A stretch of DNA of 32,000 nt from an uncultured Nitrososphaerota archaeon (GCA_964480775.1 CAYZRF010000011.1:1-32000); one strand, 5' to 3'. Counted from the first letter of the stretch, positions 5,076 through 18,928 are shown. A program made the numbers and translations. Notes: a model not told the origin generated them from the letters alone.

Positions 5076-5346
5076 ATGAAGAAGGTGGCTATCACAGGAG
5101 GAGCTGGTTTCATAGGATATTGGACCGCAAAGCGTCTCGTAGGGGAGGGCTTCGAGGTAAAAATCTTAGATAACCTTCATACTGCCAGTATGATAGAGAA
5201 AGTAAGAGAGCTCGGTCTCCAAGTTATGAAGGTCGATGTTAGGAATTTAGATGCCTTGGAAAAGACATTACAAGGTTCAAACTGTGTTATACACCTGGCT
5301 GCTCTATTGGGTGTCGAAGAATCTCTGAAAAAAATCCTAAGCTCTA
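5076..5346 (+). pseudogene. 5' remnant of an NAD-dependent sugar epimerase/dehydratase (SDR) gene
   Basis: Rossmann start MKKVAITGGAGFIGYW...ILDNL...VIHLAALLGVEES matches only the first ~88 aa of ~310-aa epimerases. The rest of the 137-aa ORF (5347-5489) is antisense to the cysC 3' end and shows no SDR motifs (no YxxxK). Confidence 0.6.
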
Positions 5347-5883
5347 TCAGCTCTTTAGATAACCTAGCTCAACTAACTTGTTTAATATTCTCTTTGCACA
5401 CTCTTCAGGGCTATTTTTCTCGCTGTCGACTACGATCTCAGGGTTTTGAGGTTCCTCGTATACGTCCTGAATACCGGTCATATCCTTGATCTCCCCAGAA
5501 AGGGCTTTTTTGTAGAGACCTTTTGGATCCCTCTCTATGCATGTCTTTAGGGAACACTTAACGTATACCTCCACGAAATCACCAATTAGCTTGCGAGCAA
5601 ACTCCCTAGTTGATCGGTATGGAGATACAAAAGAAGCTATTACAACAACACCGTTCTTGGCTAGAAGATGGCTGACGTACGCTACTCTCTTGAGGTGGCG
5701 TTCTCTGTCCTCTTGACTGAATCCGGCCTCTGGACTAAGCCACTTTCGCACCTCATCCCCATCCAAGACCTCAACCTTAAGACCTCGCATCCTAAGCTCT
5801 CTTTCAAGCTCTCTTGCCACCGTAGTCTTTCCTGAAGCAGGAAGTCCAGTTAACCAAACCACAAAACCCTTCTCCTCAGGCAT
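5347..5883 (-). CDS. cysC: adenylylsulfate (APS) kinase
   Basis: GFVVWLTGLPASGKTT P-loop, FSQEDRERHLKRV and VIASFVSPY are APS-kinase hallmarks. The ORF track starts at TTG 5886. The ATG at 5883 overlaps the upstream stop as TGATG, which suggests translational coupling. Confidence 0.9.
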   Translation of the reverse strand: MPEEKGFVVWLTGLPASGKTTVARELERELRMRGLKVEVLDGDEVRKWLSPEAGFSQEDRERHLKRVAYVSHLLAKNGVVVIASFVSPYRSTREFARKLIGDFVEVYVKCSLKTCIERDPKGLYKKALSGEIKDMTGIQDVYEEPQNPEIVVDSEKNSPEECAKRILNKLVELGYLKS

Positions 5884-7277
5884 CAAAGCACCTCCGCTAA
5901 AGCCCTGCCTCTCATGTTCTCTGCTGGCTTAATCCCCATCAAGGCTAAGATTGTTGGAGCTATGTCGTAGATGGAAGCCTCAGCCTTTTCCGATTGAAAT
6001 CTTTCCTCGGGATCATAAATCAGGTATATGCCGTTCCAGTCGTGTACTGCATCATCGGGACCAGTGTCATTTTCTGGCAAGTACCAAGTACCGTGGCCAA
6101 CGGTGCCTGCGGACCTCCAGTTTAAGTCGTCGAAATAAACGATCATGTCTGGGGCATCTCCTCTAACCACTGGATAAAGATCAGTAGGTCTGAAAGTCAT
6201 GGTCTTCATTCTTCTTCCTTCAGGGTCCTTTACAGACTTCAGATCGTCTGCCAACTGCTCCAAAGTGGCTTCAAAGTCATCCTTACTAATCCTTCCCATG
6301 GGCTCTCTTCCTTTGAGATTGATGAAGATCCTCGCGTAGTAGCCTCCCCAACCCCAAGCTATCGTCTTTTCCCAGTTTATCCTTACCTTCTTAAGTTCGA
6401 TCTGCTGTTTAGGTCTATCCTCAAAGGAAAGATATCCGTTGTCAGCCAGCCATTCGTTAACAGCAAAAGCCCCTGTCATTGCCTTAGCTCCGTGATCCGA
6501 AACCACAAACACGGAAGCATTGCCAGCAGCCCTAACAAGTCTTCCAATCCCTTCGTCAAGTAGCCTGTAATAACGCTCAGCTACGTCCTCGAACTCGCTG
6601 TTTGGAACGTGTCTTGGATGGTTGGGATCGAAGAACTTCCAAAAAGCGTGGTGAAGCCTATCAAGACCTATCTCTACGTACCAGAAAAGGTCCCAAGCCT
6701 TTACCTTCACCAGATGTTCTGCAACCCTTAGGTGCTGCCTTGTCATTTCGAAAAGCCTTTTCACAAGGGGTCCCCTTTCTTCAATCCTAAACTCGACATC
6801 ATGGGTAAAAGACCCCTCTATTATCCTCTCAATCTCAAGACGAAGCCAAGGAGGATATGTGTAGCTCTTTGCGGTGCTTGGTGTGTGAAAGTCGCTTATC
6901 ATCCAACCGCTTATCTTTCTAGGGGGATATGATGGAGGAAAGGCTATGAGGAGGGACTTCTTCCCACCCTTAGCTATTATATCCCAGACAGCTGGCTCTT
7001 TAAGCTCTCTCGACGTAACTAAGTAGAACTCCCTATACTCTCCTGGCTTTCTATGCCTGAACCCGTACATCCCTAACTCTCCTGGTGTCTTGCTCGTGGC
7101 CATAACAGCCCATGCTGGAACAGTAATTGGTGGATGACAGCTCCTAAGAGAACCGTACTTAGCCCCCTCCATGAGCCTAGAAAGGTTTGGCATCTCCGAT
7201 AGGAATCTTTCGAAGGCAAGGGACGGGGGAGCTGAGTCTAAACCTATTACCATTACTCTATTCCTACCTTTTCCCAT
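5883..7277 (-). CDS. alkaline-phosphatase-superfamily enzyme, type I phosphodiesterase/nucleotide pyrophosphatase (NPP, PF01663-like)
   Basis: Metal and nucleophile motifs: VMVIGLDS (Asp), PPITVPAW...TSKTPGELG (Thr nucleophile region), VFVVSDHGA (Asp-His), DDAVHDWNGI (His). There is no sulfatase C/S-x-P-x-R motif (CHPPI). It sits between sat and cysC with a 4-nt gap and a 1-nt overlap. Confidence 0.7.
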   Translation of the reverse strand: MGKGRNRVMVIGLDSAPPSLAFERFLSEMPNLSRLMEGAKYGSLRSCHPPITVPAWAVMATSKTPGELGMYGFRHRKPGEYREFYLVTSRELKEPAVWDIIAKGGKKSLLIAFPPSYPPRKISGWMISDFHTPSTAKSYTYPPWLRLEIERIIEGSFTHDVEFRIEERGPLVKRLFEMTRQHLRVAEHLVKVKAWDLFWYVEIGLDRLHHAFWKFFDPNHPRHVPNSEFEDVAERYYRLLDEGIGRLVRAAGNASVFVVSDHGAKAMTGAFAVNEWLADNGYLSFEDRPKQQIELKKVRINWEKTIAWGWGGYYARIFINLKGREPMGRISKDDFEATLEQLADDLKSVKDPEGRRMKTMTFRPTDLYPVVRGDAPDMIVYFDDLNWRSAGTVGHGTWYLPENDTGPDDAVHDWNGIYLIYDPEERFQSEKAEASIYDIAPTILALMGIKPAENMRGRALAEVL

Positions 7278-7281
7278 CAGA

Positions 7282-8430
7282 TCACCTTACAAAAGGATCT
7301 TCGAAGCTTAAGATCACTTCAGCAATCTCTGGCCTCATCACCTCGGGAGGAGGCTTTTTCCTCTGCATAATAAGCTCCCTTATTTTGGTTCCGCTGAACC
7401 TTATCCTATCCGATTCTGAGTGAGGACACGTCTTCTCGTTAACTAAGCCCTCGCACTTATGGCAGTAGAAGAACTCTCTGAAGAAAAGAGGAGATATTCC
7501 AAGATCAGGGAACTCCTTAAAGATCTCTTGGGCTGCATATGGCGGGTAAAAGTTGCCAACCCCTGCGTGATCCCTTCCAACGATAAAGTGGGTGCATCCA
7601 AAGTTCTTCCTCATTATGGCGTGGTGAATTGCTTCTCTAGGCCCTGCATAACGCATCTCATAACGAAGAATCGCAAGGACAGCAGTATCCCTTGGATAGT
7701 AGTTTTCTATGAGCACGCGGTAGGCTTCCAATATTACATCATCCCTGAAATCTCCTGGTTTTTTCTTACCTATTACTGGATTGACGAAGAGGCCATCAAC
7801 AAGCGCTAGAGCTGTCTTTTGAATGGCTTCATGCCCTCTATGCGGCGCATTTCTTGTTTGAAAGCCAACAACAGTCTTCCAGCCTTTTTCCTTGAAGAGA
7901 ACCCTGGTCTCCTTCGGCCAGAGGGTATACCTCTCGTGCGGGTTCGGAGCAGAGTTTAACAGAGTTATTCTCCCCCCCAAGAGCATGTCTTTCATCTCCT
8001 CGATCTTCCTAACGCCCGGATGTCTTTTGTCCTCAGTACCAAACACTGCTTTGGCAAACTTCTTCTTATCATATTGGTAAATCTCCTCAGCTTCAATTGT
8101 GGCAATTGGAACTTCATGGAGCTTAAGCAGCACCTCTTCACCCTCTACTATGTTCCTTGTCTCCTCTTTCTTAATGTCAAGTAGTATCGGCATGGTCCAG
8201 GGCACATCATTACTTAGCCTCATCTCCTTCAAACAGCTCTCCAGATCTTCTCTAAGCATGAACCCTTCTAAAGGGCTGTACACTCCCTTTGCAATGTTTT
8301 CTACTTCTACAGCCTTCTCTAGGTTTATCGCTATACTTTGAAACTCCGATGCTTCAGCAAATATTCTATCCCTCTTTGCTTCGCTTGCAACTCTGCTCAC
8401 GAGTCTGCCTCCATGAGGTCGGGAAACCAT
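7282..8430 (-). CDS. sat: sulfate adenylyltransferase (ATP sulfurylase)
   Basis: N-terminal RPHGGRL, the active-site motif GFQTRNAPHRGHE, and VGRDHAGVG. Confidence 0.9.
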   Translation of the reverse strand: MVSRPHGGRLVSRVASEAKRDRIFAEASEFQSIAINLEKAVEVENIAKGVYSPLEGFMLREDLESCLKEMRLSNDVPWTMPILLDIKKEETRNIVEGEEVLLKLHEVPIATIEAEEIYQYDKKKFAKAVFGTEDKRHPGVRKIEEMKDMLLGGRITLLNSAPNPHERYTLWPKETRVLFKEKGWKTVVGFQTRNAPHRGHEAIQKTALALVDGLFVNPVIGKKKPGDFRDDVILEAYRVLIENYYPRDTAVLAILRYEMRYAGPREAIHHAIMRKNFGCTHFIVGRDHAGVGNFYPPYAAQEIFKEFPDLGISPLFFREFFYCHKCEGLVNEKTCPHSESDRIRFSGTKIRELIMQRKKPPPEVMRPEIAEVILSFEDPFVR

Positions 8431-8439
8431 AAAACCACC

Positions 8440-8667
8440 CTACTCAAGGTAACCCAGGGCTCTTAGTTTGCGCAATATGCGCTCTTTGTCATTCTTAGTG
8501 AAGTCGAGCTTTGAGTCCTCGTAGGAGGAAATAAGTTCTCTGAGGACATATGTGACGTAGTCGCTGACAGAAGAGAAGCCCGTACCTTCAATCATCTTCT
8601 TGGCCCTTTCGTAGAGAGTGGCTGGGATGGATACCGTAGTATAACGTCCTTTTCTATTGGATCCCAT
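8440..8667 (-). CDS. ribbon-helix-helix (CopG-like) small DNA-binding protein, first gene of the sat operon
   Basis: TTVSIPATLYERAKKMIEGTGFSSVSDYVTYVLRELIS aligns with the ORF at 2841-3050. C-terminal KLRALGYLE. It lies 9 nt upstream of sat. Confidence 0.65.
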   Translation of the reverse strand: MGSNRKGRYTTVSIPATLYERAKKMIEGTGFSSVSDYVTYVLRELISSYEDSKLDFTKNDKERILRKLRALGYLE

Positions 8668-8874: not shown

Positions 8875-9969
8875 TCAAACAATTTTCCTCATAAAATCGT
8901 CGTGCACGATGATAACACCACCATCTAACTGTCTAACGAGCTTCCAACCCGCAGGAAACAGATCTAGCTTTGGTAAATCTTCAAGTACTTCATCATATCC
9001 CAGCTTGACATAATTGTATGCCAAATTGTATCTAATATCGCTGAAAACAAGACTAAAGGCGTATCCCCATAGTGGCGCCGTAGTGTGCCATTTTGCGTCT
9101 ACTTCTGTTACCTTTGGATTCCCAGAAGAATCCTCCCTTAAGTCCACAGAATAAAAACCGTGAGGATTGTCGTCTAGCGCTTTTACTGCGTTGATACCAA
9201 CTTCATTAACCTTCTTATCATTAACTATCTTTGCTATCGATGGCGTGCCAGTGATTCCGCTAAGAGTTATGTGCTTGAAAGGATACTCGATTCTCTCTCT
9301 TGCATAAGAAGTAATCAGCTTTCCCTGATACCAAAGGGAATCAAAAGCCAAATCTCTACCTGGAAGAAATTCCTGAATGATGAAATGGTTAACATTAGCC
9401 CGGCCTTGCAGGACATTTAGCCTTATCCAAAGCTTAGCCTCCTCTGGAGAATTAACTTTAAGCGAAAGTCTTCCTCCAGCCCCTGTCTTGGCCCTTATCC
9501 ACAAAGGCATACCAAGTTTTGAAAAAGCAGCGTCAACATCCTCTAAAGAACTAATCTCAAAAGTTTCTGGAGCAGGAACGCTTTTGAAGATCAGTTTTTT
9601 GTTAATGGTTGCCTTATCTGGTCCTATTACTTCTGGTCGAGGAAGGTAAAGTCTAATACCCATTGATTCCAACCTATCCTTCTCAAGAGCAATCCTGTGA
9701 GCTTCTACAGTGGGATGCGGGTGCAAGAATTCTATGCTCTGCATCTTGACTATTTTTATGATCCTGTTAATGAATTCTGGATCTGAGTGCTTCGGTGTTT
9801 TGTATCGGACATCTACCTCGGGAAACCTTAGATGATCTTGATTGTAATCTGTTCCGACTAAGAACATCTTCTCCTTGTCTTTCAGTCTTTCCGCCAGCCT
9901 TAGAGCCCTGATAAAGTTTACGCCCCCTATTCCTCCTGCTCCAGTGATTAATATCCTCCTCTCAACCAC
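8875..9969 (-). CDS. ATP-grasp family carboxylate-amine/thiol ligase (uncharacterised specificity)
   Basis: N-terminal Rossmann-like ILITGAGGIGGVNFIRAL, a central ATP-grasp body (PLWIRAKTGAGGR...IIQEFLPGRDLAFDSLW) and a C-terminal EVD-containing Mg-binding region. T-rich tracts follow the stop. Confidence 0.6.
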   Translation of the reverse strand: MVERRILITGAGGIGGVNFIRALRLAERLKDKEKMFLVGTDYNQDHLRFPEVDVRYKTPKHSDPEFINRIIKIVKMQSIEFLHPHPTVEAHRIALEKDRLESMGIRLYLPRPEVIGPDKATINKKLIFKSVPAPETFEISSLEDVDAAFSKLGMPLWIRAKTGAGGRLSLKVNSPEEAKLWIRLNVLQGRANVNHFIIQEFLPGRDLAFDSLWYQGKLITSYARERIEYPFKHITLSGITGTPSIAKIVNDKKVNEVGINAVKALDDNPHGFYSVDLREDSSGNPKVTEVDAKWHTTAPLWGYAFSLVFSDIRYNLAYNYVKLGYDEVLEDLPKLDLFPAGWKLVRQLDGGVIIVHDDFMRKIV

Positions 9970-10778
9970 TACACTTCACCTTTTTCTATGAGCTTTACCA
10001 AATCAGCACCCCTAACCGCGCTTATCCAATCCAAAGATGCGATATATTCAACTACATCTTTGTACTTCCTTCCACCTTTCATCTTTAACGAGGAGTCATG
10101 CCATAATATGGTAATAATGCTTTTGCGGGATTGCAGCGAAATCCTGAGGGCCTTTCTTATGACATCTAAAACGTCTTCTTCGCGGATCCTCATGTAAGTA
10201 AACATATACGCATCCATTAAGGTAATTGGAAACTCAATCAATCCTGAAATTTTTAAGAAGCCCATATTTTCGGAGGTTACTTCCTTTTTTGAGAATGATA
10301 GAGATGAATCATAGGTAAAACCAGCCTCTCTCAACAATGGTAAATCCTCAAATTTCACCCGTAGATAGTGCACTCTGGCACCGATGACCCCTGTGCCAAT
10401 CACTTTCTCTATTTGTTGCTTTTCTTCCTTAATTTCGTTTAAATTGTCGGCTCGATTTAAGTGAACTCCAATTTCCCAGCCTTTTCTCCAAAGTTCCTTC
10501 ATTATCTCAGAGTAGCAATCGATTTCAGTACCATCATCGTAAACTGGCCTAAAAAAGAACGTAGATTTGAGTCCGTAAGAAGTCTCAAGGTCCATAATTT
10601 CGGGAATATTGTAATACGGATTATAGCCCTCCTTTAATACCTTAGCAATTATCTCTTCACTAAACCTTTCTCTCCTAGCAAGTATGTGATCTTTGCCAGG
10701 ACCCTGTAAGGGCCAGTCGACGTCATGCGTTAAGAAAATGAAAATTTGCTGACTCTCACTCGAATCACCGAGCGACAA
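9969..10778 (-). CDS. polysaccharide deacetylase-like (CE4-type) protein
   Basis: FLTHDVDWP metal motif, GWEIGVHL and ARVHYLR histidine motifs. The only possible start is TTG 10778, 6 nt after GGGTGAT. It has a 1-nt overlap with the downstream ATP-grasp gene. Confidence 0.6.
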   Translation of the reverse strand: MSLGDSSESQQIFIFLTHDVDWPLQGPGKDHILARRERFSEEIIAKVLKEGYNPYYNIPEIMDLETSYGLKSTFFFRPVYDDGTEIDCYSEIMKELWRKGWEIGVHLNRADNLNEIKEEKQQIEKVIGTGVIGARVHYLRVKFEDLPLLREAGFTYDSSLSFSKKEVTSENMGFLKISGLIEFPITLMDAYMFTYMRIREEDVLDVIRKALRISLQSRKSIITILWHDSSLKMKGGRKYKDVVEYIASLDWISAVRGADLVKLIEKGEV

Positions 10779-10992
10779 GATTATATCACCCTTCTAGATG
10801 CTCTCTCCCCGAAATTCCTTGTTTCTATTGTTTGTTCTGATCAATCTTTCACTCATATCCCTTAAACTTGAGTTATTCTATTAAATTCCCAATAGATTTG
10901 TGGTTGTTGAATGCGTCAATGAGAGGTCTTTATACGTACAATCTTGCTCCCTACTCATTCCGTTAAGACGATGGGATCAAACAGAACTTCCC

Positions 10993-11778
10993 TTAAATCC
11001 TCCCAAGGCTCTTGTATACCTCGCTCTCTAGTTCATCTAAGATCATTTCTCTTATTTTCAGGAATTTTTCGCCTGTATAGCTTCTAGGTCTTGGTATTTC
11101 GATTGAAAACTCTTTTTTGACCCTTCCTGGTCGAGCTGTCATCACGCAGACTCTGTCTGCAAGATAGGTCGCCTCAATTACTGAGTGAGTCACGAACACG
11201 ACGGTTTTCTTCTCCCTTTCCCATATCTTCAATAATTCTCCCTGCATGACCTTCCTTGTCTGTGCGTCTAAGGCTCCAAATGGCTCGTCCATCAGTAGGA
11301 TCTCCGGATTATTCACAAGAGCTCTGGCCAGAGCTACCCTTTGCTTCATTCCACCCGAAAGTTCATGGGGATATCTGTCTTCAAAACCTGCCAAGCCAAC
11401 TAGTTCAATGTACCTCATCGCTTTGTCGATCCTCTCCTCTTTTGGTGTCCCCTTGAGTTCCAACCCAAAAGTTACGTTCTGAAGCACGGTTCTCCAAGGA
11501 AACAGGGCGTACTCTTGAAAGATCATGCATCTTTCTGGGCCGGGACCCCGTATCGCCTCTCCATCAAGATAGACAACACCCTTTGTTGGCTTTTCCAGCC
11601 CAGCGACTATCCTAAGGAAAGTCGATTTTCCACACCCACTCGGACCAACAAGACATAAAAACTCATTTGGATATACCTTAAGGCTCATATCTTTCAAGGC
11701 AATTATTTTTGCTGATTCGCTTCCATAGATCTTAGTTACAGAATCAGCAACAAGTTTCGGTTTTACCATTGACCACAC
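10993..11778 (-). CDS. ABC transporter ATP-binding protein, NitT/TauT (SsuB/TauB/ThiZ-like) family
   Basis: Walker [28 protein letters not shown], signature [15 protein letters not shown], Walker [12 protein letters not shown]. The start is GTG 11778 or ATG 11769. Confidence 0.85.
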
Positions 11779-11779
11779 C

Positions 11780-12595
11780 TTACACCGTAGAGACTTTTAG
11801 CCCCTTTCTCCACTTCAAGAGCCTTTCTTCGATCTTACCAAAGACGAACTTCTCTATGAAAAGCATAGTTGCCGAGAGCGTCACAATTGTGGCGAAAACG
11901 ATATCAGTTCTTGCAATCCCTCTGGCCATGATTAGTTGATATCCCAAACCACCCCTTACTCCAACCATCTCGGCTGCGAGGTCCACTCTCCAAGAAAATC
12001 CCACAGCTAGCCTGAATCCAGTTAGAATGCTGGGAAAAGCCCCAGGAAGTATTACTTTCAAGAAGACATCCTTTTTTCTTGCACCTAAAGTCTGAGCTGC
12101 TTGGATTAAAGTTAGATCAACACTTCTTACTCCTTCCATCGTATTTAGGAGTATGGGAACAACGGCGGAGACTGTTATTATGAATATCGACGATCTATTA
12201 CCGGAACCAAACCATATCAGAGCTAATGGTATCCAAGCCACTCCGGGAATTGGCTGTATGATCCTTATCCAAGGACTTATAACCCGATTCAGACCAGACG
12301 ACAGTTCGGCTAATATTCCTAAAGGAACTCCAATTATGGCTGCAATGCAAAAACCAACGATGATCCTGTAAAAACTCAATGAAAGCGTGTAGAAGAGGTT
12401 GTGGAATATCGAAACTTCCTTCATCGTGGTTAGGTAATACAAAGTCTTTAGAACATCAATGGGGGAAGGTAAAATGAGTTTGGCTGTTTTTGGAGGTAAT
12501 TGATAGAATAGGTTGGTCATAGAAGCTAGTTGCCATATTCCAAGGCCAGCCAGCACAGAAATCATGCCTAACGTTCGATCTCTCCACTTTTTCAT
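11780..12595 (-). CDS. ABC transporter permease, NitT/TauT (SsuC/TauC-like) family
   Basis: Six predicted hydrophobic spans. EAA-loop [28 protein letters not shown]. Confidence 0.8.
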
Positions 12596-12641
12596 GAGCT
12601 ACACCCACATAATATTAGAAACGGAAAGCGATGCTTTATCA

Positions 12642-13634
12642 TCACCCTTTGATAAACGATAAATCGAATAACTCATCTTCCTCTGGGAGCTCTTCTATTA
12701 TTCCGAGCTGCTTTGCGAACTGAAGGATTTCATAGCAATCCTGAACGTTCACATTATAGTTGAATTCAATCCTTCTACGGGCACTTTCTACTATGGATAC
12801 GTCTAGATTCATTATCTGAGCTATGAGCTCATTTGCCTCTTTTGGGTTCTCATTTATCCAGTCTACTGTATCAATGTAGACCTCAAGGAATTTTCTAAGG
12901 AGATCTGGGTGGTTTTCTATGAAAGAGGTTCTGGCCACCACAACATTCACAGGATATATTCTTCCTTCATGATTTTCTCTCCACCATTGTGCTACATCGA
13001 AAACTATCACGTATTTACCTGGGTAGTTTATTTCTGCTTGAGACGCAAAGGGTTCCCAAGTCATCATTGCATCGAATTCCTTAGACACGAACACGAGTTG
13101 AGGCATATCAGCTGGCGCTATCCCAACCCTTGTGTCGATATCTTTTTGCCAGTCTAGCGGAGGATTCGCCACAACTTTCGTTAACAGTGTCGAGTAAAGC
13201 GTGTGGGTGACTGATCCAATTCGAGGAGTACAAACCGACTTCCCCTTTAGGTCATTAACTGTCTCTATACCCGAATCAGCTCTCGCAATAAGCACGTGTC
13301 CGCCTCCGTTAGCCCCTGCAACGACCTTGAGATCTATTCCTGAAGCAAACCACTTTGTCGAAGGTACTATCCCTAAAAGAGCAATTTGGATCTCTTCTCC
13401 TGAAAAGGCTTCCATTAGCGTTGGACCATCTGGATAAACAATTATCTCCACATTTAGCCCCGCTTGTTCGAAGGATCCTTTGAATTCAGCAATTTTTGGC
13501 GTTATAGTTCCTAAGGCAAGTATCATCCCCACTTTTATAGGCTTTTCCTCCTTAGTGCGCCTTTGAGTTGCTATGAATGCTCCGAGTAAGAGCAAAAGGA
13601 TAATAATTGCCGAAAATACTGCTTTTTTCTCCAT
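12642..13634 (-). CDS. ABC transporter substrate-binding protein, NMT1/THI5-like (SsuA/TauA/ThiY-type)
   Basis: N-terminal membrane anchor/signal (AVFSAIIILLLLLGAFIA), a type-II periplasmic-binding-protein-like body, and the first position in the ABC operon. Confidence 0.65.
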   Translation of the reverse strand: MEKKAVFSAIIILLLLLGAFIATQRRTKEEKPIKVGMILALGTITPKIAEFKGSFEQAGLNVEIIVYPDGPTLMEAFSGEEIQIALLGIVPSTKWFASGIDLKVVAGANGGGHVLIARADSGIETVNDLKGKSVCTPRIGSVTHTLYSTLLTKVVANPPLDWQKDIDTRVGIAPADMPQLVFVSKEFDAMMTWEPFASQAEINYPGKYVIVFDVAQWWRENHEGRIYPVNVVVARTSFIENHPDLLRKFLEVYIDTVDWINENPKEANELIAQIMNLDVSIVESARRRIEFNYNVNVQDCYEILQFAKQLGIIEELPEEDELFDLSFIKG

Positions 13635-13800
13635 CTTTAGATCAAACCTTTTTTCATCAATTACTTAATAATCCTTTCCGTCAAAGAACTTTTTCGTAAC
13701 CATATATGGAAATATAGGGAAGCAATTATTCCATGAAAGGTTATTAATTTTCAAAATAGTATAATTTTATATTGAGATTTGCCTTATTTGGTGATGGAAT

Positions 13801-14328
13801 ATGATGAGCGAAGGAGAGTCGATATTACGTAAGATTGTAGAATCGGATAGGGCGTTTTGTCAAGCATTTTTGGAGTATTTGAAGAAAAATGGAATAAGTA
13901 TAAAGGACTTCAGCAGAATGGCCAATCTACCAACTAGCACGCTGTATAAAATCACCTCTGGGAGGGTTAAGACGATAAGATCAAACACTCTTAGAAAGAT
14001 CATCAAAACGATAAGAGAATTAGAGGAAAAGGAAATAAGAAAGGATGCTATTGCCATAATAACTACCAGAACCGCAATCGAGCTAACGGAAAAAGAGATA
14101 AGCATTGATGGCAAGAAGTACGTGATCCTCGAATATCCAGCAGATTCAATAGAAGAAGAAATAATTCAAGGAATAAGGGCAGAAAAAGCCGGAGCTAAGG
14201 GCATAATTTGCGGTCCAATTGCGGCTACAACGCTGGAAAAGGTTGTTTCCATTCCTATCGCAACGATAAGGTTTGAAGAAGGACCTCTAAGGAACGCCAT
14301 CGATAGGCTCCTAAAAAGGATCACGTAG
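13801..14328 (+). CDS. HTH (XRE-like) transcriptional regulator with uncharacterised C-terminal alpha/beta domain
   Basis: HTH segment ISIKDFSRMANLPTSTLYKITSG. GGTGAT SD at 13790-13795. It is the only plus-strand gene between 5347 and 23868, it is divergent from the ABC operon, and its 3' end overlaps the convergent decarboxylase gene by 8 nt. Confidence 0.55.
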   Translation: MMSEGESILRKIVESDRAFCQAFLEYLKKNGISIKDFSRMANLPTSTLYKITSGRVKTIRSNTLRKIIKTIRELEEKEIRKDAIAIITTRTAIELTEKEISIDGKKYVILEYPADSIEEEIIQGIRAEKAGAKGIICGPIAATTLEKVVSIPIATIRFEEGPLRNAIDRLLKRIT

Positions 14329-15520
14329 TGACGAGCTGTCCTCTTGCTTTTTTGATTGCTTTCATAAATCTTTCCTTAATTTCCGTATTTTCCATAGGAA
14401 TCGTTGGAACCTTTTCGTTTCCAGGTTTTAGTATGGTATGAATGAAGAATGGCCCGTCGTTGTTCAAGCTATGATCCAACGCTTCAATTAGCTTGTCCTG
14501 GTTCTCAGCAATGAGAATGTTTGATCTTGGAATGCCATATGAAACGGCAAGGGCGCTTAAGTTTAGTCCTTCAAATGTATAGATGGGATAGTTTCGTGTC
14601 GATCCATAGACACCATTATCGAGCACTATCAAAATTAAGTTCTTCGGCCTTTGGTCTGCAACAATGGTCAGAGAACCTGGATTCATAAGCAGCCCTCCAT
14701 CTCCCTCAAAACATACAATTTTTTCGCCTATGTCCTCGGTAGTTAGGGCCAAACCAAGTGCTAACATATATGTTTGACCGAGAGACGAAGTCAGGTAGAA
14801 GTTTCGCTCCCTATCCCTTATCTGATAAAGTTCTCTGCTTGGAAGACCTATGTTCGAAACGACGAACTCATCCTTTATCCTCTTCATTACAGTTGATATG
14901 GCCTCATATCTTCTCATTTCTGCTTTAACTTTAATTTCAGGGAAAAAAGTGCCGTTTAATTGTCTAATAATGCTTTTCCACTTTTTCTCCTCAGTCATCA
15001 TCCTTCCAAATTCTGGTCTTATCGTTAATGCAACAGTGTAGCCTTTTTCATATTCTTTCAATAAGTCATCTGCCCTCTCAAGATCAGATCTTTTTTCTAT
15101 GGAACACTGCTTAATTCCAGGCATATCTAAGATTTTTTTCGTTTGTCTTCCCATCGGCTTCTGTGCTCTTATCTTCTCGCCCTCTATCCCTCTGTGGGTA
15201 ATGATGTATAGATTTGGAAACCTGTATGAACCCTCTAGGTGACTGTTTAACACAAGTAGTTGTCCTACCATATTGCCTAGGCCTTGATTCTGAATTATCA
15301 TTGCCGTTTTTCTTCCACCCAAGTAAGCCCCAGCACTTAGTGCTACTCCACTTTCTTCTCTTACAAGAGGTACATGGGTTAGTTCGCCAAAACTTCTAAT
15401 TCTTCTAATCAAATCAACGTTATACGAGCCTGGAAGAGTGGAAAAGAAGCTAAAACCATGTTTTATACACAGTTCAAAGATCTCTTCGTAGATTTCGTGC
15501 AATTTATTCACCTTAAACAA
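14321..15520 (-). CDS. fused ThDP-dependent decarboxylase, sulfopyruvate (ComDE)/phosphonopyruvate decarboxylase family
   Basis: The N-half is ComD-like: REESGVALSAGAYLGGRKTAMIIQNQGLGN and THRGIEGEKIRAQKPMG. The C-half is ComE-like, with the ThDP motif GDGGLLMNPGSL...LDNGVYGSTRN. The start is TTG 15520 or GTG 15511. Confidence 0.7.
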   Translation of the reverse strand: MFKVNKLHEIYEEIFELCIKHGFSFFSTLPGSYNVDLIRRIRSFGELTHVPLVREESGVALSAGAYLGGRKTAMIIQNQGLGNMVGQLLVLNSHLEGSYRFPNLYIITHRGIEGEKIRAQKPMGRQTKKILDMPGIKQCSIEKRSDLERADDLLKEYEKGYTVALTIRPEFGRMMTEEKKWKSIIRQLNGTFFPEIKVKAEMRRYEAISTVMKRIKDEFVVSNIGLPSRELYQIRDRERNFYLTSSLGQTYMLALGLALTTEDIGEKIVCFEGDGGLLMNPGSLTIVADQRPKNLILIVLDNGVYGSTRNYPIYTFEGLNLSALAVSYGIPRSNILIAENQDKLIEALDHSLNNDGPFFIHTILKPGNEKVPTIPMENTEIKERFMKAIKKARGQLVTT

Positions 15521-15558
15521 TAAGTCGCCATTTATCCGACGAACTACTCAGCTTGGGC

Positions 15559-16710
15559 CTATAGGAACAAGTCCATTATAAAAGCACTTATTTTCACCAT
15601 CTCAGGTCCAGGATCTATTAATGAAATGTCAGTTACTGTCTTTTTACTAAAGAATAGCTTGATGAAGCGTTTGAAATTGTCAAGTTTTCCTGGAGCTTCT
15701 AAAATATAATTCATATCATATGGAAAGACCCAAAGGAAGGTTAGGTTCTTTTCATAGTCAAAAACTGGGTCGACATCTCCTTCTAGCGCCATCTTGTATA
15801 ATAGGTAAGGAAAATCTATCCCTGCCTTTATTGAAAGCTCTAAAGTTCCCCAGAATTTTGGATTAATTTCCATTAACCTAGGCTTACCTTCGGCATCCAA
15901 TTTGAACTCTACTTGGGCTAAACCATGCCAATTCAGTTTCTTCATAAGTTTTATAGCCATCTCCCTTAGCTTCTCATCACTTATAGTTTCATTAACGATA
16001 CCGACTCCTCCTCTCGGAGGCCATGTCCAAACTCTTCTTTGAACAAGCGCCGCTCTAGGTTCTCCCTGATTAAAAAGAACGCAAACATCTCTAATTTCTC
16101 CAGGTATGTATTCTTGTATCATAGGAAGCTTTTGTTCTTCAATGAGCGAGTCGCAAGGTAGACTTTCTATCTCCTTGTATTTTTCCAAGAGTTCAGTCTT
16201 TGATCTAACAAGTCTGACCCCCTTATCAACCCCTGAACCTTTCCTTCTCTTTATTATAACGGGATAACTCACTTTCTCGGAGATTTCGAGGACATCCTCT
16301 TTAGACTTTGGAAAATAAGTTTTTGGAACTGGAACACCAACTTCTTCCGCTATTCTCAGTGCTTGTGATTTATCATGTGCCTTTACCAAGGTGTCATAAT
16401 CAGCTACTGGAACGTTTGTGAAGTTCAAGAGTTTATCTTTGTAATAGGAGACTGGCACAGTAGTATCAACGCCCACGGGAAATAACAAGTCGATTTTTTC
16501 CTCTTTGATTATTTTCAGCAGACTATTGACAAATTTAATTGCGTTTTTTTTGGGAGGATAGTATATCCTTCGACTCCTGCAATATCTTGAATAAAACGAT
16601 AGAGCAACCTTTTTGTGCGAAGCCGTCGTGATTTTGATACCCCTTTTCCCTAAGGACCGGACAGCTGCTAGAGTGTTCTTGTAACTAGCATTTGTGATCA
16701 GTACGCTCAT
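15559..16710 (-). CDS. ATP-grasp family ligase (uncharacterised specificity)
   Basis: Pre-ATP-grasp N-domain, then YPVIIKRRKGSGVDKGVRLV, MIQEYIPGEIRDVCVL and AQVEFKLDAEGKPRLMEINPKFWG (Mg/ATP-binding E-x-N). It lies 38 nt upstream of the decarboxylase. Confidence 0.65.
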   Translation of the reverse strand: MSVLITNASYKNTLAAVRSLGKRGIKITTASHKKVALSFYSRYCRSRRIYYPPKKNAIKFVNSLLKIIKEEKIDLLFPVGVDTTVPVSYYKDKLLNFTNVPVADYDTLVKAHDKSQALRIAEEVGVPVPKTYFPKSKEDVLEISEKVSYPVIIKRRKGSGVDKGVRLVRSKTELLEKYKEIESLPCDSLIEEQKLPMIQEYIPGEIRDVCVLFNQGEPRAALVQRRVWTWPPRGGVGIVNETISDEKLREMAIKLMKKLNWHGLAQVEFKLDAEGKPRLMEINPKFWGTLELSIKAGIDFPYLLYKMALEGDVDPVFDYEKNLTFLWVFPYDMNYILEAPGKLDNFKRFIKLFFSKKTVTDISLIDPGPEMVKISAFIMDLFL

Positions 16711-16916
16711 ACAAAGCCTATTCGAGACATTGTTAAAATAAATTTTCTCATATTTTATCGAGTTTTTAAGAACTAAAGGCGCGTTAAGAAGCTCGTTCCC
16801 TTATTGAATTGTAAATTTAAAGACAAACCCTTTATTTATGGAACCCATAAAATAGCGACCAATCAATAAATGAAGCTGGTGGTTTTCCCCTTTTGCTGAG
16901 AAAAAACATGAATCCT

Positions 16917-17897
16917 TCAGTCTTTTAATGAGAAGATTGAAAGTGCCGTTTTCCAAATCTGATTGGCTCTATCCACCGCAGCATAATACAACCAAAGCTC
17001 ATCCTCCCTTAGAAGAGGGGAAGGGGTGTCTAAACCAATCTCGCTTTTTATATCTGGCATAATTTTCTTCTTCTCTAAAGGACCGTTAATAAGGATTCTT
17101 TTTTGGGCAATCTTCTCAAAAAATGGAGAAAAAGCTTCTACTATGCCAATATATTGTTTGTAGGGGAAACCCACCGAATACATTGAGGCAGCGGGTAAAA
17201 GATAGTGTCTGTCATCTAACCTGAAATAGCCAGGACAGAAAAGAGATTCGTTCCAAGTGCCCTTTCTACCGTTCAAGTGGCTGAGAGGATTTCTTTCCCA
17301 TCTCTTAACCCTAATTTCATCTTTCGATAAGATTTTTAGCCTCAATATGGATATACGTCTTCGTAGAAATCTTGATCCGCTTATGAAACGCAGGAGACGA
17401 TAAATCTTCCCCTTGTTTGAGGCGTTGCTGTAGTAAATTAAGTATTCCTCCTCATTCAGCTTAACTACTGATGGTCCAATATCTATGTCATTTCCCTCCC
17501 AATCATATGTCGGTCTAATTAGTTCCTTGACATACTTCCATGGGCCCAATGGATCCTCTGCGAAAGCTAAGCCCAACCTTCTGCCTTGTTCTTTGTTAGG
17601 TTTAAATGCAAAAACCATCCAGTATGTGTCTTTTACCTTGAACACTACTGGTGTTACAGTTTGCAGGCCAACGGATATTAGAGGATTTTCGTGACTCTTA
17701 GTGAAATTCACTCCATCAGAACTAGTAGCTACACCAATCGATGCCCTCTTGCGCTCAATGTCGGATGAACCAGAATAATAAAAGTAATAGGTGCCATCTT
17801 CATAAAAAATAGATCCAAAAGTAGAAGCCTTACTATCGAAATCCTCCTTTGAAGAAGGTTCTAAGATGACTCCCAAATGTTTCTTTAATTTGATCAT
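16917..17897 (-). CDS. five-bladed beta-propeller glycosidase/phosphorylase-like protein (GH43/GH130/DUF377-like)
   Basis: Repeated blade pattern: GTYYFYYSG...ASIGVATSSDGVNFTK..NPLI; YWMVFAF...LGLAFAEDPLGPWKY; EYLIYYSNAS; LWLYYAAVD. Confidence 0.5.
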   Translation of the reverse strand: MIKLKKHLGVILEPSSKEDFDSKASTFGSIFYEDGTYYFYYSGSSDIERKRASIGVATSSDGVNFTKSHENPLISVGLQTVTPVVFKVKDTYWMVFAFKPNKEQGRRLGLAFAEDPLGPWKYVKELIRPTYDWEGNDIDIGPSVVKLNEEEYLIYYSNASNKGKIYRLLRFISGSRFLRRRISILRLKILSKDEIRVKRWERNPLSHLNGRKGTWNESLFCPGYFRLDDRHYLLPAASMYSVGFPYKQYIGIVEAFSPFFEKIAQKRILINGPLEKKKIMPDIKSEIGLDTPSPLLREDELWLYYAAVDRANQIWKTALSIFSLKD

Positions 17898-18103
17898 GCT
17901 GTTCAGGGGGATCCCTCATACTATATAAAAACTCTATATGGAGTTTAAATTTTGCTTAAAATTTTAACAAAGAGTATAAGCTTAAACGTTCTTATGTACT
18001 CAGATGAGCGACTTTTTAGGAGCGATAGAAAAGGACGAAAATGAATCTAACTAAAACTCTTGAGAGATGTGTTGATTACAAGACTGTTTTAACAGAAGAT
18101 CAG

Positions 18104-18928
18104 TCAGAATCCCAATTGATTTCTAACTTTTTCCCAAAACCTCTTTTTCTGCATCTTGCTGACCCAATTGGCAATTTCCAAGCGCTCTACATCTTTGTGT
18201 CTCGCCCACCCCCAAAACATACTTAATCCAGCTCTTGGTGATCTTAGAAACGTTAACAGACACCTTCCCAAGGCATACTTCCAATCATACCCAAGCGCAT
18301 ACATTGCTTTGCCCAAATAACCGGCTTTTCTAAGAGAAGTGGTTCTCTTAACCTCAGTTACTATGTCTCCAAAGCACCTTGTTTCATATCCTCTCTCAAG
18401 GGCCTTTAAGTAGAGCCACGCCTCCCACCCCCAAGCAACTGGATACTGCATGTTGCTTTCTTTTTTCCAAAAAGAAGCTCTTACAATTCTTCCAGATCCT
18501 CTTGGAACCTGCTCGTCATATGGTTCACCCTTTATCCTTCCACTTGCTACAACAAGTTTGGGGTTTGCTTCCATTCTTGAGACTATTTTTCTAACGTAAT
18601 CTGGAGGTAATGGATGATCTGCTCCGACAATTAGAACATAGTCGTAATCTTCTTCTCTCGCTACCTTCAGTCCTACATTTACTCTTTCTGCGAGTTCAGG
18701 TCTTCCAACGTAACTTTCTTCATGGTATGGTAGGTCGATGACGAAACACCCCATCTCTCTTGCAATGTCTCCAGTCCCATCTGTTGACCCATCATCAACT
18801 AATATTATGTCAACAGGCATTGTTTGGCTCTTAAGAGAAGTTATAGTATCTCTAATGTAATTTTTTTCGTTTCTAGCAAAGATTATAGCTACTACTCTGG
18901 CTCTTCCTTTGATTTTTTTATAATTCAA
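18104..18928 (-). CDS. family 2 glycosyltransferase (GT-A fold)
   Basis: VVAIIFARNEKNYIRDTITSL...ILVDDGSTDGT and a GADHPLP region. The only possible start is TTG 18928, 5 nt after GGAGGGT. Confidence 0.75.
   Translation of the reverse strand: MNYKKIKGRARVVAIIFARNEKNYIRDTITSLKSQTMPVDIILVDDGSTDGTGDIAREMGCFVIDLPYHEESYVGRPELAERVNVGLKVAREEDYDYVLIVGADHPLPPDYVRKIVSRMEANPKLVVASGRIKGEPYDEQVPRGSGRIVRASFWKKESNMQYPVAWGWEAWLYLKALERGYETRCFGDIVTEVKRTTSLRKAGYLGKAMYALGYDWKYALGRCLLTFLRSPRAGLSMFWGWARHKDVERLEIANWVSKMQKKRFWEKVRNQLGF

Follow-up and report, generated by a model that had tools for sequence, protein, structure and literature searches.

Phosphonoglycan loci, such as those of Bacteroides fragilis and Nitrosopumilus maritimus, encode PEP mutase, Ppd and AEP transaminase. 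Archaeal coenzyme M (CoM) is made either by ComABC-ComDE (Methanocaldococcus, Methanococcus) or by cysteate synthase, ComDE and MMP16 (Methanosarcina acetivorans MA3297-3299; PMC12068725). In M. acetivorans, ssuA/ssuC, described as the CoM transporter, are induced along with cs and comDE under CoM starvation, and CoM can also form non-enzymatically from sulfide and sulfoacetaldehyde (PMC12068725). For the Wbp/Vim system of Porphyromonas gingivalis, a CE4 deacetylase is proposed to expose a sugar amine before an unusual re-acylation (PMC7468200), and in Campylobacter jejuni the ATP-grasp enzyme Cj1438 amidates capsule glucuronate with serinol- or ethanolamine-phosphate (PMC11800379). The type B flagellin of Clostridioides difficile carries a sulfonated peptidylamido-glycan with a taurinyl-Ala-Gly cap (PMC5207245).

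We analysed a window of 32,000 nucleotides (the whole stretch of DNA) from a genome, G000, that is probably Korarchaeota. The window shares with the archaeal CoM pathways a ComDE-type decarboxylase, the regulator family and the layout of an SsuABC-type importer, and its relatives share the upstream enzymes. It differs in that no Mcr, CoM synthase or upstream synthesis genes were found, that its fused ComDE belongs to a separate clade, and that the genes sit among ligases and a deacetylase within a glycan locus. As in phosphonoglycan loci, a ThDP decarboxylase of the same superfamily lies in a surface-glycan locus and would supply a small anionic C2 substituent, but with sulfur for phosphorus, no PEP mutase or cytidylyltransferase, and a predicted ATP-grasp amide rather than an ester. 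The Wbp/Vim system has the same kind of CE4 deacetylase, whereas VimA is a Fem/GNAT-type enzyme adding serine or glycine and the window is predicted to join a sulfonated acid by ATP-grasp; no VimA-type transferase or Wbp genes were seen in the window, which has ATP-grasp genes instead. Cj1438 shares the ATP-grasp fold and the amide on a surface polysaccharide that is predicted for the window, but belongs to a TupA-like family and acts without sulfonate. The C. difficile glycan resembles the prediction in that an N-acylated amino sugar bears a C2 sulfonate, a taurine unit; it is bacterial, however, and the portion of PMC5207245 covered gives no link to ComDE or the window's ligase family. Precedents for the proposed chemistry are Wbp/Vim re-acylation, Cj1438 amidation and the taurine-capped flagellin glycan.

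Layout of the cassette and its setting

5347-8667, minus strand: PAPS operon (RHH, sat, phosphodiesterase-fold gene, cysC), flanking the cassette
8875-9969, minus strand: ATP-grasp ligase 1, PRK12767-like; outside the initial annotation, counted in the cassette
9969-10778, minus strand: CE4/VimE-like carbohydrate deacetylase (weak profile matches), predicted to release a sugar amine
10993-11778, minus strand: ABC ATPase, NitT/TauT type (NCBIfam SaoA, TauB, NtrCD, all under cut-off)
11780-12595, minus strand: ABC permease, SsuC/TauC type (PF00528; SaoP, TauC, SsuC models under cut-off)
12642-13634, minus strand: substrate-binding protein (SBP), SsuA/TauA-like, predicted ligand a C3 sulfonate
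13700-13709, no strand: palindrome CCATATATGG, candidate operator of CC-W6-GG type
13731-13740: near match to the CC-W6-GG box
13782-13791: second CC-W6-GG box
13801-14328, plus strand: XRE-HTH regulator (PF13443/PF01381) with C-terminal PrpR_N-like sensor domain
14321-15520, minus strand: fused ComDE-type sulfopyruvate decarboxylase, assigned from motifs and tree; likely start 15502
15559-16710, minus strand: ATP-grasp ligase 2, ATPgrasp_Ter family (PF15632), sulfonate-tracking subfamily
16917-17897, minus strand: five-bladed-propeller glycoside hydrolase-like protein (GH43/32/130), from a domain match
18104-18928, minus strand: GT2 glycosyltransferase, recurring with the cassette in relatives

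The six ORFs named in the initial annotation (ATPase, permease, SBP, HTH, ThDP decarboxylase and ATP-grasp) are intact at their coordinates, as is the convergent 8-nt overlap of the HTH and decarboxylase genes, and we agree that the window has no PEP mutase, ComA/B/C or aminotransferase. The 38-nt gap given between the ATP-grasp and decarboxylase genes holds for the first possible start, but the likelier TTG start at 15502, which is preceded by a GGTGA Shine-Dalgarno and agrees with homolog N-termini, gives 56 nt. The cassette does contain the genes named but is larger (8875-18928), adding the deacetylase, a second ATP-grasp and GT2.

By sequence comparison, the cassette slot is a variable glycan locus: in the congener G002, different glycan genes replace the segment 8656-19156. 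The PAPS operon, present in G002 with 81-87% protein identity, had been cited in support of organosulfonate metabolism; as congeners without the cassette keep it and no cysH-type reductase was found, it is no evidence for a sulfonate reading, and it is probably unrelated to the cassette that it flanks. The propeller protein is probably general glycan-locus cargo; a glycan locus from an Asgard archaeon, with no sulfonate genes within 20 kb, encodes a 64% homolog of it. The host is a hot-vent archaeon that makes no methane, with a CoM-type enzyme, an importer and a regulator in a variable surface-sugar locus.

Phylogeny and context of the decarboxylase

The decarboxylase is a PYR+PP enzyme without a middle domain and has the features expected of ComDE, namely the ThDP motif GDG...DN and the catalytic Glu segment VREES, with the conserved columns of its clade present in an intact ORF. 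The motif that had been judged more ComE-like than Ppd-like was quoted correctly but does not discriminate, because a PEP-mutase-adjacent decarboxylase scores 191 bits on the ComE model and the window protein 192. The curated NCBIfam cut-offs were missed (TIGR03845, 106.5 vs 148 bits; TIGR03846, 191.9 vs 221.5 bits), and the TIGR03297 Ppd score of 193 bits is level with the ComE model. As the comABC-linked relative L151 misses the same two ComDE cut-offs (111 and 190 bits), these two models do not cover the clade.

In quick IQ-TREE runs (SH-aLRT supports), the enzyme groups with comABC-linked enzymes (97/100 for its own clade). Ppd enzymes linked to PEP mutase form a separate branch (support 99 between Com and Ppd), and the window enzyme stands 1.2 substitutions per site within the Com part of the tree; the phylogenetic check proposed earlier therefore places it outside the Ppd clade. 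Its nearest relatives (69-74% identity) sit in cysH-comA-comB(-comC)-comDE operons, and PEP mutase was found beside no member of the clade, which is 48-74% identical within itself and about 35% identical to the fused methanogen- and ANME-type enzymes. A ComDE-type assignment, with sulfopyruvate rather than phosphonopyruvate as the predicted substrate, is well supported, and the earlier preference for organosulfonate over phosphonate chemistry gains support from both the phylogeny and the recurring gene neighbourhoods.

Recurrence of the ligases, importer and regulator

The model of ligase 2 has a complete ATP-grasp fold (pLDDT 95), and a PDB search found no characterised close relative. A 59-62% homolog from another class of the same phylum adjoins HTH-comA-comB-comD-comE-AOR-deacetylase; 64-65% homologs lie in ligase-deacetylase-cysH-cysteate synthase-comDE-GT4 loci, where cysteate synthase scores above cut-off (523 bits) and no adjacent AOR was found; and a 47% homolog stands directly upstream of comD-comE, with HTH, comA and GT2. 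In the ligase tree, a group of 26 rows (support 91) holds 11 sulfonate-linked and no unlinked loci, while the neighbouring group (support 100) holds 22 unlinked loci and 1 linked. In every case where its surroundings were read, the ligase 2 subfamily has sulfonate genes nearby, belonging to the ComAB route, the cysteate-synthase route or an importer. These are glycan loci from Korarchaeota, Bathyarchaeia and Asgard archaea that lack mcr, and a deacetylase is usually adjacent. One Asgard locus (G726) unites GT2, HTH, comDE, cysteate synthase, cysH, full importer, ligase 2, deacetylase and GT4. Cassette loci with ligase 2 use three different ComDE clades, so the association of ligase and decarboxylase either persisted or was re-established in distinct lineages of the decarboxylase. 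As a control, 401 Bathyarchaeia were searched, yielding comE-like genes in 14 and related ligases in 23: all three genomes with the closest ligases have comDE beside HTH, whereas among the distant ligases only 1/20 has a comE-like gene, a Ppd adjoining PEP mutase (Fisher p ~3e-5, overstated since two of the three are kin). That the cassette's parts reappear alongside this ligase in three archaeal phyla suggests an undescribed route for sulfonating the cell coat.

Ligase 1 is 34-36% identical to ATP-grasp genes whose direct neighbours are this HTH and ABC or com genes (L146, L147/148, L282), and groups with them at support 100, together with one copy without nearby sulfonate genes; either ligase may be the one that handles the sulfonate. 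The deacetylase, which lies beside a putative amide-forming enzyme (8875-10778), has weak matches to VimE NF053580 (E 6e-11, far under cut-off) and to a WbmS-like family. It is 38-39% identical to the deacetylases adjoining the ligase 2 ortholog in G124/G138 and 34% to that in L148, and a deacetylase also lies beside ligase 2 orthologs in L139, L154, L156, L183, L184, L310-312 and L314. The earlier idea that an ATP-grasp enzyme ligates a sulfoacetaldehyde-derived unit to the envelope glycan is supported by the phylogeny and neighbourhoods. As the deacetylase is the constant partner, acylation of a sugar amine is favoured over the uronic acid amidation suggested earlier, both linkages being predictions. 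Homologs of GT2 (34-38%) directly adjoin comE or HTH in G124, G138 and G726, and one lies within the same cassette in G853. Pairs of ATP-grasp and deacetylase genes are common in glycan loci without sulfonate genes.

The importer has a NitT/TauT architecture with an SsuA-like binding protein, although all equivalog cut-offs were missed (TIGR01728 SsuA, 138 bits, cut-off 163.5). All four PDB sequence matches of the SBP are sulfonate/taurine-type binding proteins, one of them (3e4r) deposited as "nitrate transport protein", and the segments GP, GS-x-x-H and W-D/E-P align with them. Like M. acetivorans SsuABC and bacterial SsuA/TauA importers, it combines an SBP-permease-ATPase set with SsuA-like segments and the same divergent HTH family; unlike them, its SBP shares no more than 30% identity with any of the HTH-linked SBPs fetched (a set in which the M. 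acetivorans protein itself is absent by name) and stands on its own long unsupported branch, apart from methanogen SBPs. The closest fetched relatives of the ATPase (62-64%) are glycan-locus importers (L282, L146). We predict an SsuABC/TauABC-type importer of a C3 sulfonate.

In the regulator model (pLDDT 87), the part spanning residues 82-175 resembles 2q5c (Z 13.6, rmsd 1.8 over 89 aligned residues) as well as PrpR 2pju (Z 9.8). The regulator is not dedicated to this cassette, as had been proposed: its family occurs in 138/201 Halobacteriota, in most cases transcribed divergently from the gene for an SsuA-like SBP or for cysteate synthase. Nearly all Halobacteriota methanogens have it, next to SsuA-type importers and CoM genes, and the HTH protein is a candidate sulfonate/CoM-regulon regulator. 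The perfect palindrome reported in the divergent spacer is present, but alone it is not above chance (1 match in the window at up to one mismatch, 0.57 expected), and relatives do not conserve the exact 10-mer. The palindrome nevertheless conforms to a degenerate CC-W6-GG box found in 13/54 regulator-upstream regions against 1.5 in shuffles (maximum 5; kin inflate the count), with a genome-wide density of 0.1 per kb, and boxes with spacings of 4, 5, 7 and 8 are not enriched. The CC-W6-GG boxes of the spacer are candidate operators; none was found upstream of the ligase 2/comDE pair.

Proposed pathway and alternatives

Profile searches of G000 (completeness 90%; the comparison set consists mostly of incomplete MAGs) found no ComA, ComB or cysH-type reductase, a best cysteate synthase match of 108 bits (cut-off 325), only ferredoxin-domain matches for the CoM synthase MMP16/ComF, and no L-ASST domain; COG1900 CoM synthase is absent from G000, G124 and G138. 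McrA was found in none of the 10 tested genomes carrying the cassette or its ligase, G000 among them, while the search was positive in the relative G014 and in control methanogens. PEP mutase and AEP transaminase were not found in G000 either, so that PEP mutase, mcr and a full CoM pathway, named at the outset as counting against the sulfonate reading, were all looked for there and none appeared.

On genomic evidence, we consider it moderately probable that the cassette is an import-fed form of an archaeal system adding a C2 sulfonate to the envelope glycan. The ABC system would import sulfolactate, cysteate or sulfopyruvate, and ComDE would depend on this import, because no de novo sulfopyruvate source was found in G000. 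A housekeeping Ldh_2/ComC-family dehydrogenase or an aminotransferase could yield sulfopyruvate, which the fused ComDE is predicted, with good support from phylogeny and context, to convert to sulfoacetaldehyde. An aldehyde:ferredoxin oxidoreductase, such as the AOR beside comDE in relatives, could then give sulfoacetate, or a transaminase taurine. The candidate genes are unspecific, since the AOR ortholog (58-59% to comDE-linked AOR) is present in 5/5 genomes of the genus and the ComC family, whose G000 member is under cut-off, in 29/43 of the phylum. Finally, the deacetylase would free an N-acetyl sugar amine, an ATP-grasp ligase would form the amide and GT2 would build the product into the glycan: tentatively an N-sulfoacetyl sugar, more doubtfully a taurine-containing amide and, very improbably, another linkage. 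The HTH protein may sense the sulfonate and control the importer from the divergent spacer, and relatives would feed the same ligase by de novo synthesis via ComABC or cysteate synthase.

More broadly, we regard it as evenly balanced whether an undescribed sulfonated surface sugar (N-sulfoacetyl or taurine amide) is produced by archaea from three or more phyla that are not methanogens, the CoM enzymes, the importer and the regulator being exchangeable modules that supply a dedicated ATP-grasp ligase for sulfonates. If so, this sugar would be to sulfur what phosphonoglycans are to phosphorus; such genomes would not have comDE, comAB and cysteate synthase as leftovers from methanogenesis; and the shared XRE-PrpR_N regulator would act as a sulfonate sensor in archaea generally, with the methanogen CoM regulon also under its control.

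It is unlikely, in our view, that the glycan is sulfonated while the importer brings a finished C2 unit (sulfoacetate, taurine, isethionate or CoM), comDE being a substrate-less leftover of a cysH-comABC-comDE operon, or that shuffled neighbours do not act together. In L145, L146 and G365, HTH, importer and ATP-grasp do share a glycan locus that, over the DNA read, contains no com gene, com operons do decay, as the 54-aa comC fragment in the nearest relative's operon shows, other members of the decarboxylase clade stand alone amid unrelated genes, and the gene order of the window cassette is unlike that of every relative. However, the decarboxylase ORF is intact with its conserved columns, ligase 2 directly upstream of comDE recurs, and three Bathyarchaeia likewise retain comDE, HTH and ligase 2, neither comA nor cysteate synthase having been found there.

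Quite unlikely is the making or salvage of CoM or another free sulfonate (thiol antioxidant, compatible solute), with a separate glycan role for the ligase. Methanosarcinaceae-like genomes share the HTH and SsuA-type importer layout, and the M. acetivorans CoM transporter and non-enzymatic CoM formation fit this reading, but the missing McrA, MMP16/ComF and L-ASST domain and an SBP that does not group with methanogen SBPs do not, and it leaves unexplained both a ligase subfamily tracking comDE across three phyla and the placement in a variable glycan slot.

Bacteria such as Roseovarius degrade sulfolactate through ComDE plus Xsc, and an importer and decarboxylase without synthesis genes is the usual catabolic layout. 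The Promethearchaeota sister clade of the decarboxylase adjoins sulfoquinovosidase, SQ-isomerase-like and transaldolase genes, and AOR could draw electrons from sulfoacetaldehyde. Even so, degradation of imported sulfolactate or cysteate via sulfopyruvate and sulfoacetaldehyde for carbon, sulfur or electrons seems distinctly improbable: no Xsc-like or second ComDE-like enzyme was found in G000 by a motif and profile scan of ThDP enzymes, nor were SQ genes, and the decarboxylase, whose closest relatives are in biosynthetic operons, follows a ligase gene within a glycan locus.

Finally, a phosphonate glycan locus with a Ppd and a PEP mutase in the unassembled tenth of the genome is barely credible: the level Ppd score, a putative Ppd as the sole close PDB match and the Ppd genes in archaeal glycan loci L223, L225 and L226 are outweighed by the searches, which found neither PEP mutase nor AEP transaminase in G000 and no PEP mutase neighbours in the clade, and by the position of the enzyme on the Com side of the tree.

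Gene layout and genomic setting

The six genes and orientations of the initial annotation were borne out by a check of the sequence, and both the 8-nt overlap between the regulator and decarboxylase genes and the spacer palindrome are present as claimed. The reported 38-nt gap between ligase 2 and the decarboxylase holds for the first possible start, but the likelier TTG at 15502, which is preceded by a GGTGA element and agrees better with the homologs, gives 56 nt. Pfam and NCBIfam models identify a NitT/TauT-type importer, an XRE-HTH protein, a ThDP enzyme with two fused domains and a ligase of the ATPgrasp_Ter family, none of which attains an NCBIfam equivalog cut-off. A scan of the window for sigma-70 promoters and terminators gave nothing exceeding chance, and a hairpin between ligase 2 and comDE (15525-15542) was not significant. 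The features needed below are:

5347-8667, PAPS operon
8875-18928, cassette (ligase 1, deacetylase, ABC importer, regulator, fused ComDE-type decarboxylase, ligase 2, GH-like gene, GT2)
8875-9969, ligase 1, ATP-grasp
13700-13709, palindrome in the divergent spacer
13801-14328, XRE-type regulator (HTH), divergent from the importer
15559-16710, ligase 2, ATP-grasp

The source genome, G000, is an archaeal MAG of 1.82 Mb (90.5% complete), and the decarboxylase region recurs at 99% identity in metagenome Ga0190304, which we take to come from vent sediment of the Guaymas Basin. Searches of the 4 congeners and of 35 family members gave no match to the decarboxylase, HTH or ligase 2. In congener G002 the two flanks, sat-cysC and the MPE/Lhr genes, are retained, and the slot between them is occupied by different glycosyltransferases together with an epimerase, a UDP-sugar dehydrogenase and sulfatase-like genes, which marks 8.7-19.1 kb as a variable surface-glycan cassette. 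Since these flanks surround different glycan genes in G002, the PAPS operon has no specific tie to the cassette; the proposal that it supplies the sulfur was rejected, as it is conserved without the cassette and cysH was not found in G000. At 5076-5489 an epimerase gene is truncated, and the full-length 304-aa copies at the same locus in G002 support a rearrangement junction. In G014, a family member with mcrA, the search gave no match to the window decarboxylase or regulator.

Genome-wide, no PEP mutase, ComA, ComB or McrA was found in G000, nor a cysteate synthase above cut-off, and searches for MMP16/ComF and an Xsc-like enzyme were likewise negative at this completeness. Its five PALP genes were rejected as cysteate synthases, all being far under the cut-off, and the threonine-synthase-like protein fused to a PadR-type HTH at 26945-28381 was ruled out at 34.5 bits. 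A ComC-family dehydrogenase lies on another contig and is phylum-wide; this gene and an AOR ortholog were both rejected as specific cassette partners, since both are lineage-wide.

The decarboxylase and its ligase partners

The C-half motif that had been read as ComE-like does not discriminate ComE from Ppd, nor does the HMM score, because a PEP-mutase-linked Ppd scores the same. In the phylogeny (like all trees reported here, a quick tree search), the PEP-mutase-linked enzymes form a separate branch (SH-aLRT 99). The window decarboxylase is one of about 60 fused enzymes that make up a clade of their own at 48-74% identity, beyond which identity falls to about 36%. Of its nearest relatives, one (L151, 74%) lies in cysH-comA-comB-comC-comDE-AOR, a second (L147/148, 72%) in HTH/cysH-comA-comB-comC fragment-comDE-GT4 with an ATP-grasp gene and a deacetylase, and a third (L050, 69%) in cysH-comA-comB-comDE. 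Context and trees together indicate that the substrate is very probably sulfopyruvate.

Genuine phosphonate loci, with PEP mutase or AEP transaminase, a split Ppd, an NTP transferase and Fe-ADH, were seen inside glycan regions of three Bathyarchaeia (L223, L225 and L226, in G100, G464 and G262), where the HMM score alone would mis-annotate Ppd as comDE. A sister subclade of the decarboxylase in Promethearchaeota and related metagenome contigs (L052/L131:3013-11203, L022:5904-11218, L063, L064, L062) often adjoins sulfoquinovose genes: a sulfoquinovosidase (YihQ model, 798 bits, exceeding the cut-off of 553), an SftI-like SQ isomerase (241 bits, under cut-off), a transaldolase, an MFS carrier and, in one case, AOR. 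These loci may encode a sulfo-transaldolase pathway in Asgard archaea; according to a review of 2026, no archaeal route of SQ degradation has been characterised (PMC12890257).

The ATP-grasp fold of ligase 2 is complete, none of its close relatives is characterised, and a fold search returned generic ATP-grasp matches only. Within its close subfamily, every member whose surroundings can be read far enough is linked to sulfonate genes. In G040, of the same phylum and another class, HTH-comA-comB-comD-comE occurs with AOR, a deacetylase and a ligase (59-62%). Three homologs at 64-65%, one of them identical to the copy in the Asgard genome G755, start clusters of the form ligase-deacetylase-cysH-cysteate synthase-comDE-GT4, and a 47% homolog immediately precedes comD-comE, an arrangement shared with the window, in the vicinity of HTH, comA and GT2. 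Among Bathyarchaeia, the order is comE-comD-HTH-ligase in G225, and G138 and G124 carry GT2-comE-comD-HTH plus a deacetylase-ligase pair 18 kb away or on another contig. All the cassette parts stand in a single locus in Asgard G726, the ligase directly after the importer. In a control set of 401 Bathyarchaeia, comDE accompanies each of the three closest ligases and none of the 20 more distant ones, bar one case of a true Ppd, and the ligase tree gives the same split; these figures are inflated by kinship and by labelling from neighbourhood. That the ligase is paired with three ComDE clades and two synthesis routes is a stronger point than these counts. Homologs of ligase 1 directly adjoin HTH plus importer or com genes in L146, L148 and L282, and the cassette therefore takes in ligase 1 and the deacetylase. 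A third ATP-grasp type, with a PylC-like N-terminus, recurs with a PIG-L deacetylase beside GT2-comE-comD-HTH (L220, L217, L311), so some cassettes hold up to three ligases.

Proposed sulfonate supply and ligation

The simplest reading that joins these facts would be a supply-plus-ligation design, whose every chemical step is predicted from what was observed: gene content, phylogeny, co-occurrence and the absence of mcr from the ten genomes examined that carry the cassette or its ligase. The sulfonate could come from ComABC, from cysteate synthase or from import, and each route would run through ComDE wherever it is present, so that the unit used would lie downstream of sulfoacetaldehyde. An ATP-grasp enzyme requires a carboxylate and an amine; the amine may be offered by the deacetylase, which points to sulfoacetate as the acid partner. 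AOR directly adjoins comDE in L151, L139 and L063, and the G000 ortholog, found genus-wide, is 58-59% identical to the L151 enzyme. Alternatively, taurine could be the amine, joined to a uronate, as has precedent in Cj1438 chemistry and would suit the aminotransferases near HTH in two loci. Class III aminotransferases adjoining HTH in G124 and near it in G138 were considered and rejected, as their homologs in G000 reach only 29-38% identity and lie in other contexts. G000, G124, G138 and G225 have in common a comDE without detected synthesis genes, so an import-fed form of the cassette probably exists; conceivably, the window comDE is a remnant.

The cassette is real, and its parts are known: CoM enzymes, SsuABC, a Vim-type deacetylase and ATP-grasp amidoligases. 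It qualifies as neither CoM nor phosphonate biosynthesis and would function as the sulfur analogue of a phosphonoglycan locus, its attachment predicted to be an amide. A taurine-capped glycan is already known from C. difficile (PMC5207245). No literature on such a cassette or combination was found in a search that left most subscription journals outside its coverage, and nothing relevant on a sulfoacetyl glycan, an archaeal taurine glycan or a bulgecin ATP-grasp. In genomes of Bathyarchaeia, Korarchaeota and Asgard archaea, CoM-pathway genes are readily taken for traces of methane metabolism; the supply-plus-ligation design would give them another, testable role in the chemistry of the cell surface. 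Under this design both the glycan substituent and the ligase activity, which can be assayed with cheap substrates, should be new, and anoxic sediments should contain a sink for environmental C3 sulfonates.

The regulator, its box and the importer

The second half of the HTH protein is a PrpR_N-like sensor. Its family occurs, usually in single copy, in 138 of 201 Halobacteriota, where in the loci read it is mostly divergent from an SsuA-like binding protein or cysteate synthase, with unrelated neighbours in one family. Among 401 Bathyarchaeia it was found in only 11, three copies adjoining comDE and eight a NitT/TauT importer. The CoM transporter of M. acetivorans is described as ssuA and ssuC, which are upregulated with cs and comDE under CoM starvation (PMC12068725). 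Because of these neighbours and this response, the protein is best read as a putative sulfonate-regulon regulator. A CC-W6-GG box lies upstream of the regulator in 13 of 54 regions versus 1.5 in shuffles, at spacing 6 only, although five of the hits come from kin and an adjacent BRE may contribute part of the signal. The window spacer holds two such boxes, one of them the reported palindrome, for which exact conservation in relatives was not found. Together, protein and box offer a concrete candidate regulator of the Methanosarcina CoM-starvation response, in a genetically tractable genus.

The window ATPase and HTH are nearest to the glycan-locus versions, and the SBP (the importer's binding protein) is unlike all others compared, which would fit a different ligand. 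Atlas searches with HTH and SBP gave only unnamed archaeal clusters. In Halobacteriota methanogens (L243-L262, L290-L298), the XRE-PrpR_N regulator has a CC-T-W4-A-GG box; its divergent neighbour is an SsuA-type importer in the Methanosarcinaceae-like genomes and cysteate synthase in other members. HTH and a NitT/TauT importer, with no com genes or ligases nearby, also occur in Archaeoglobi-like genomes, two same-class relatives and several Bathyarchaeia (L140, L141, L142, L283-L289). A separate SBP-like clade lies by cysteate synthase or comDE, often without an adjacent permease (L218, L221, L290, L296, L219).
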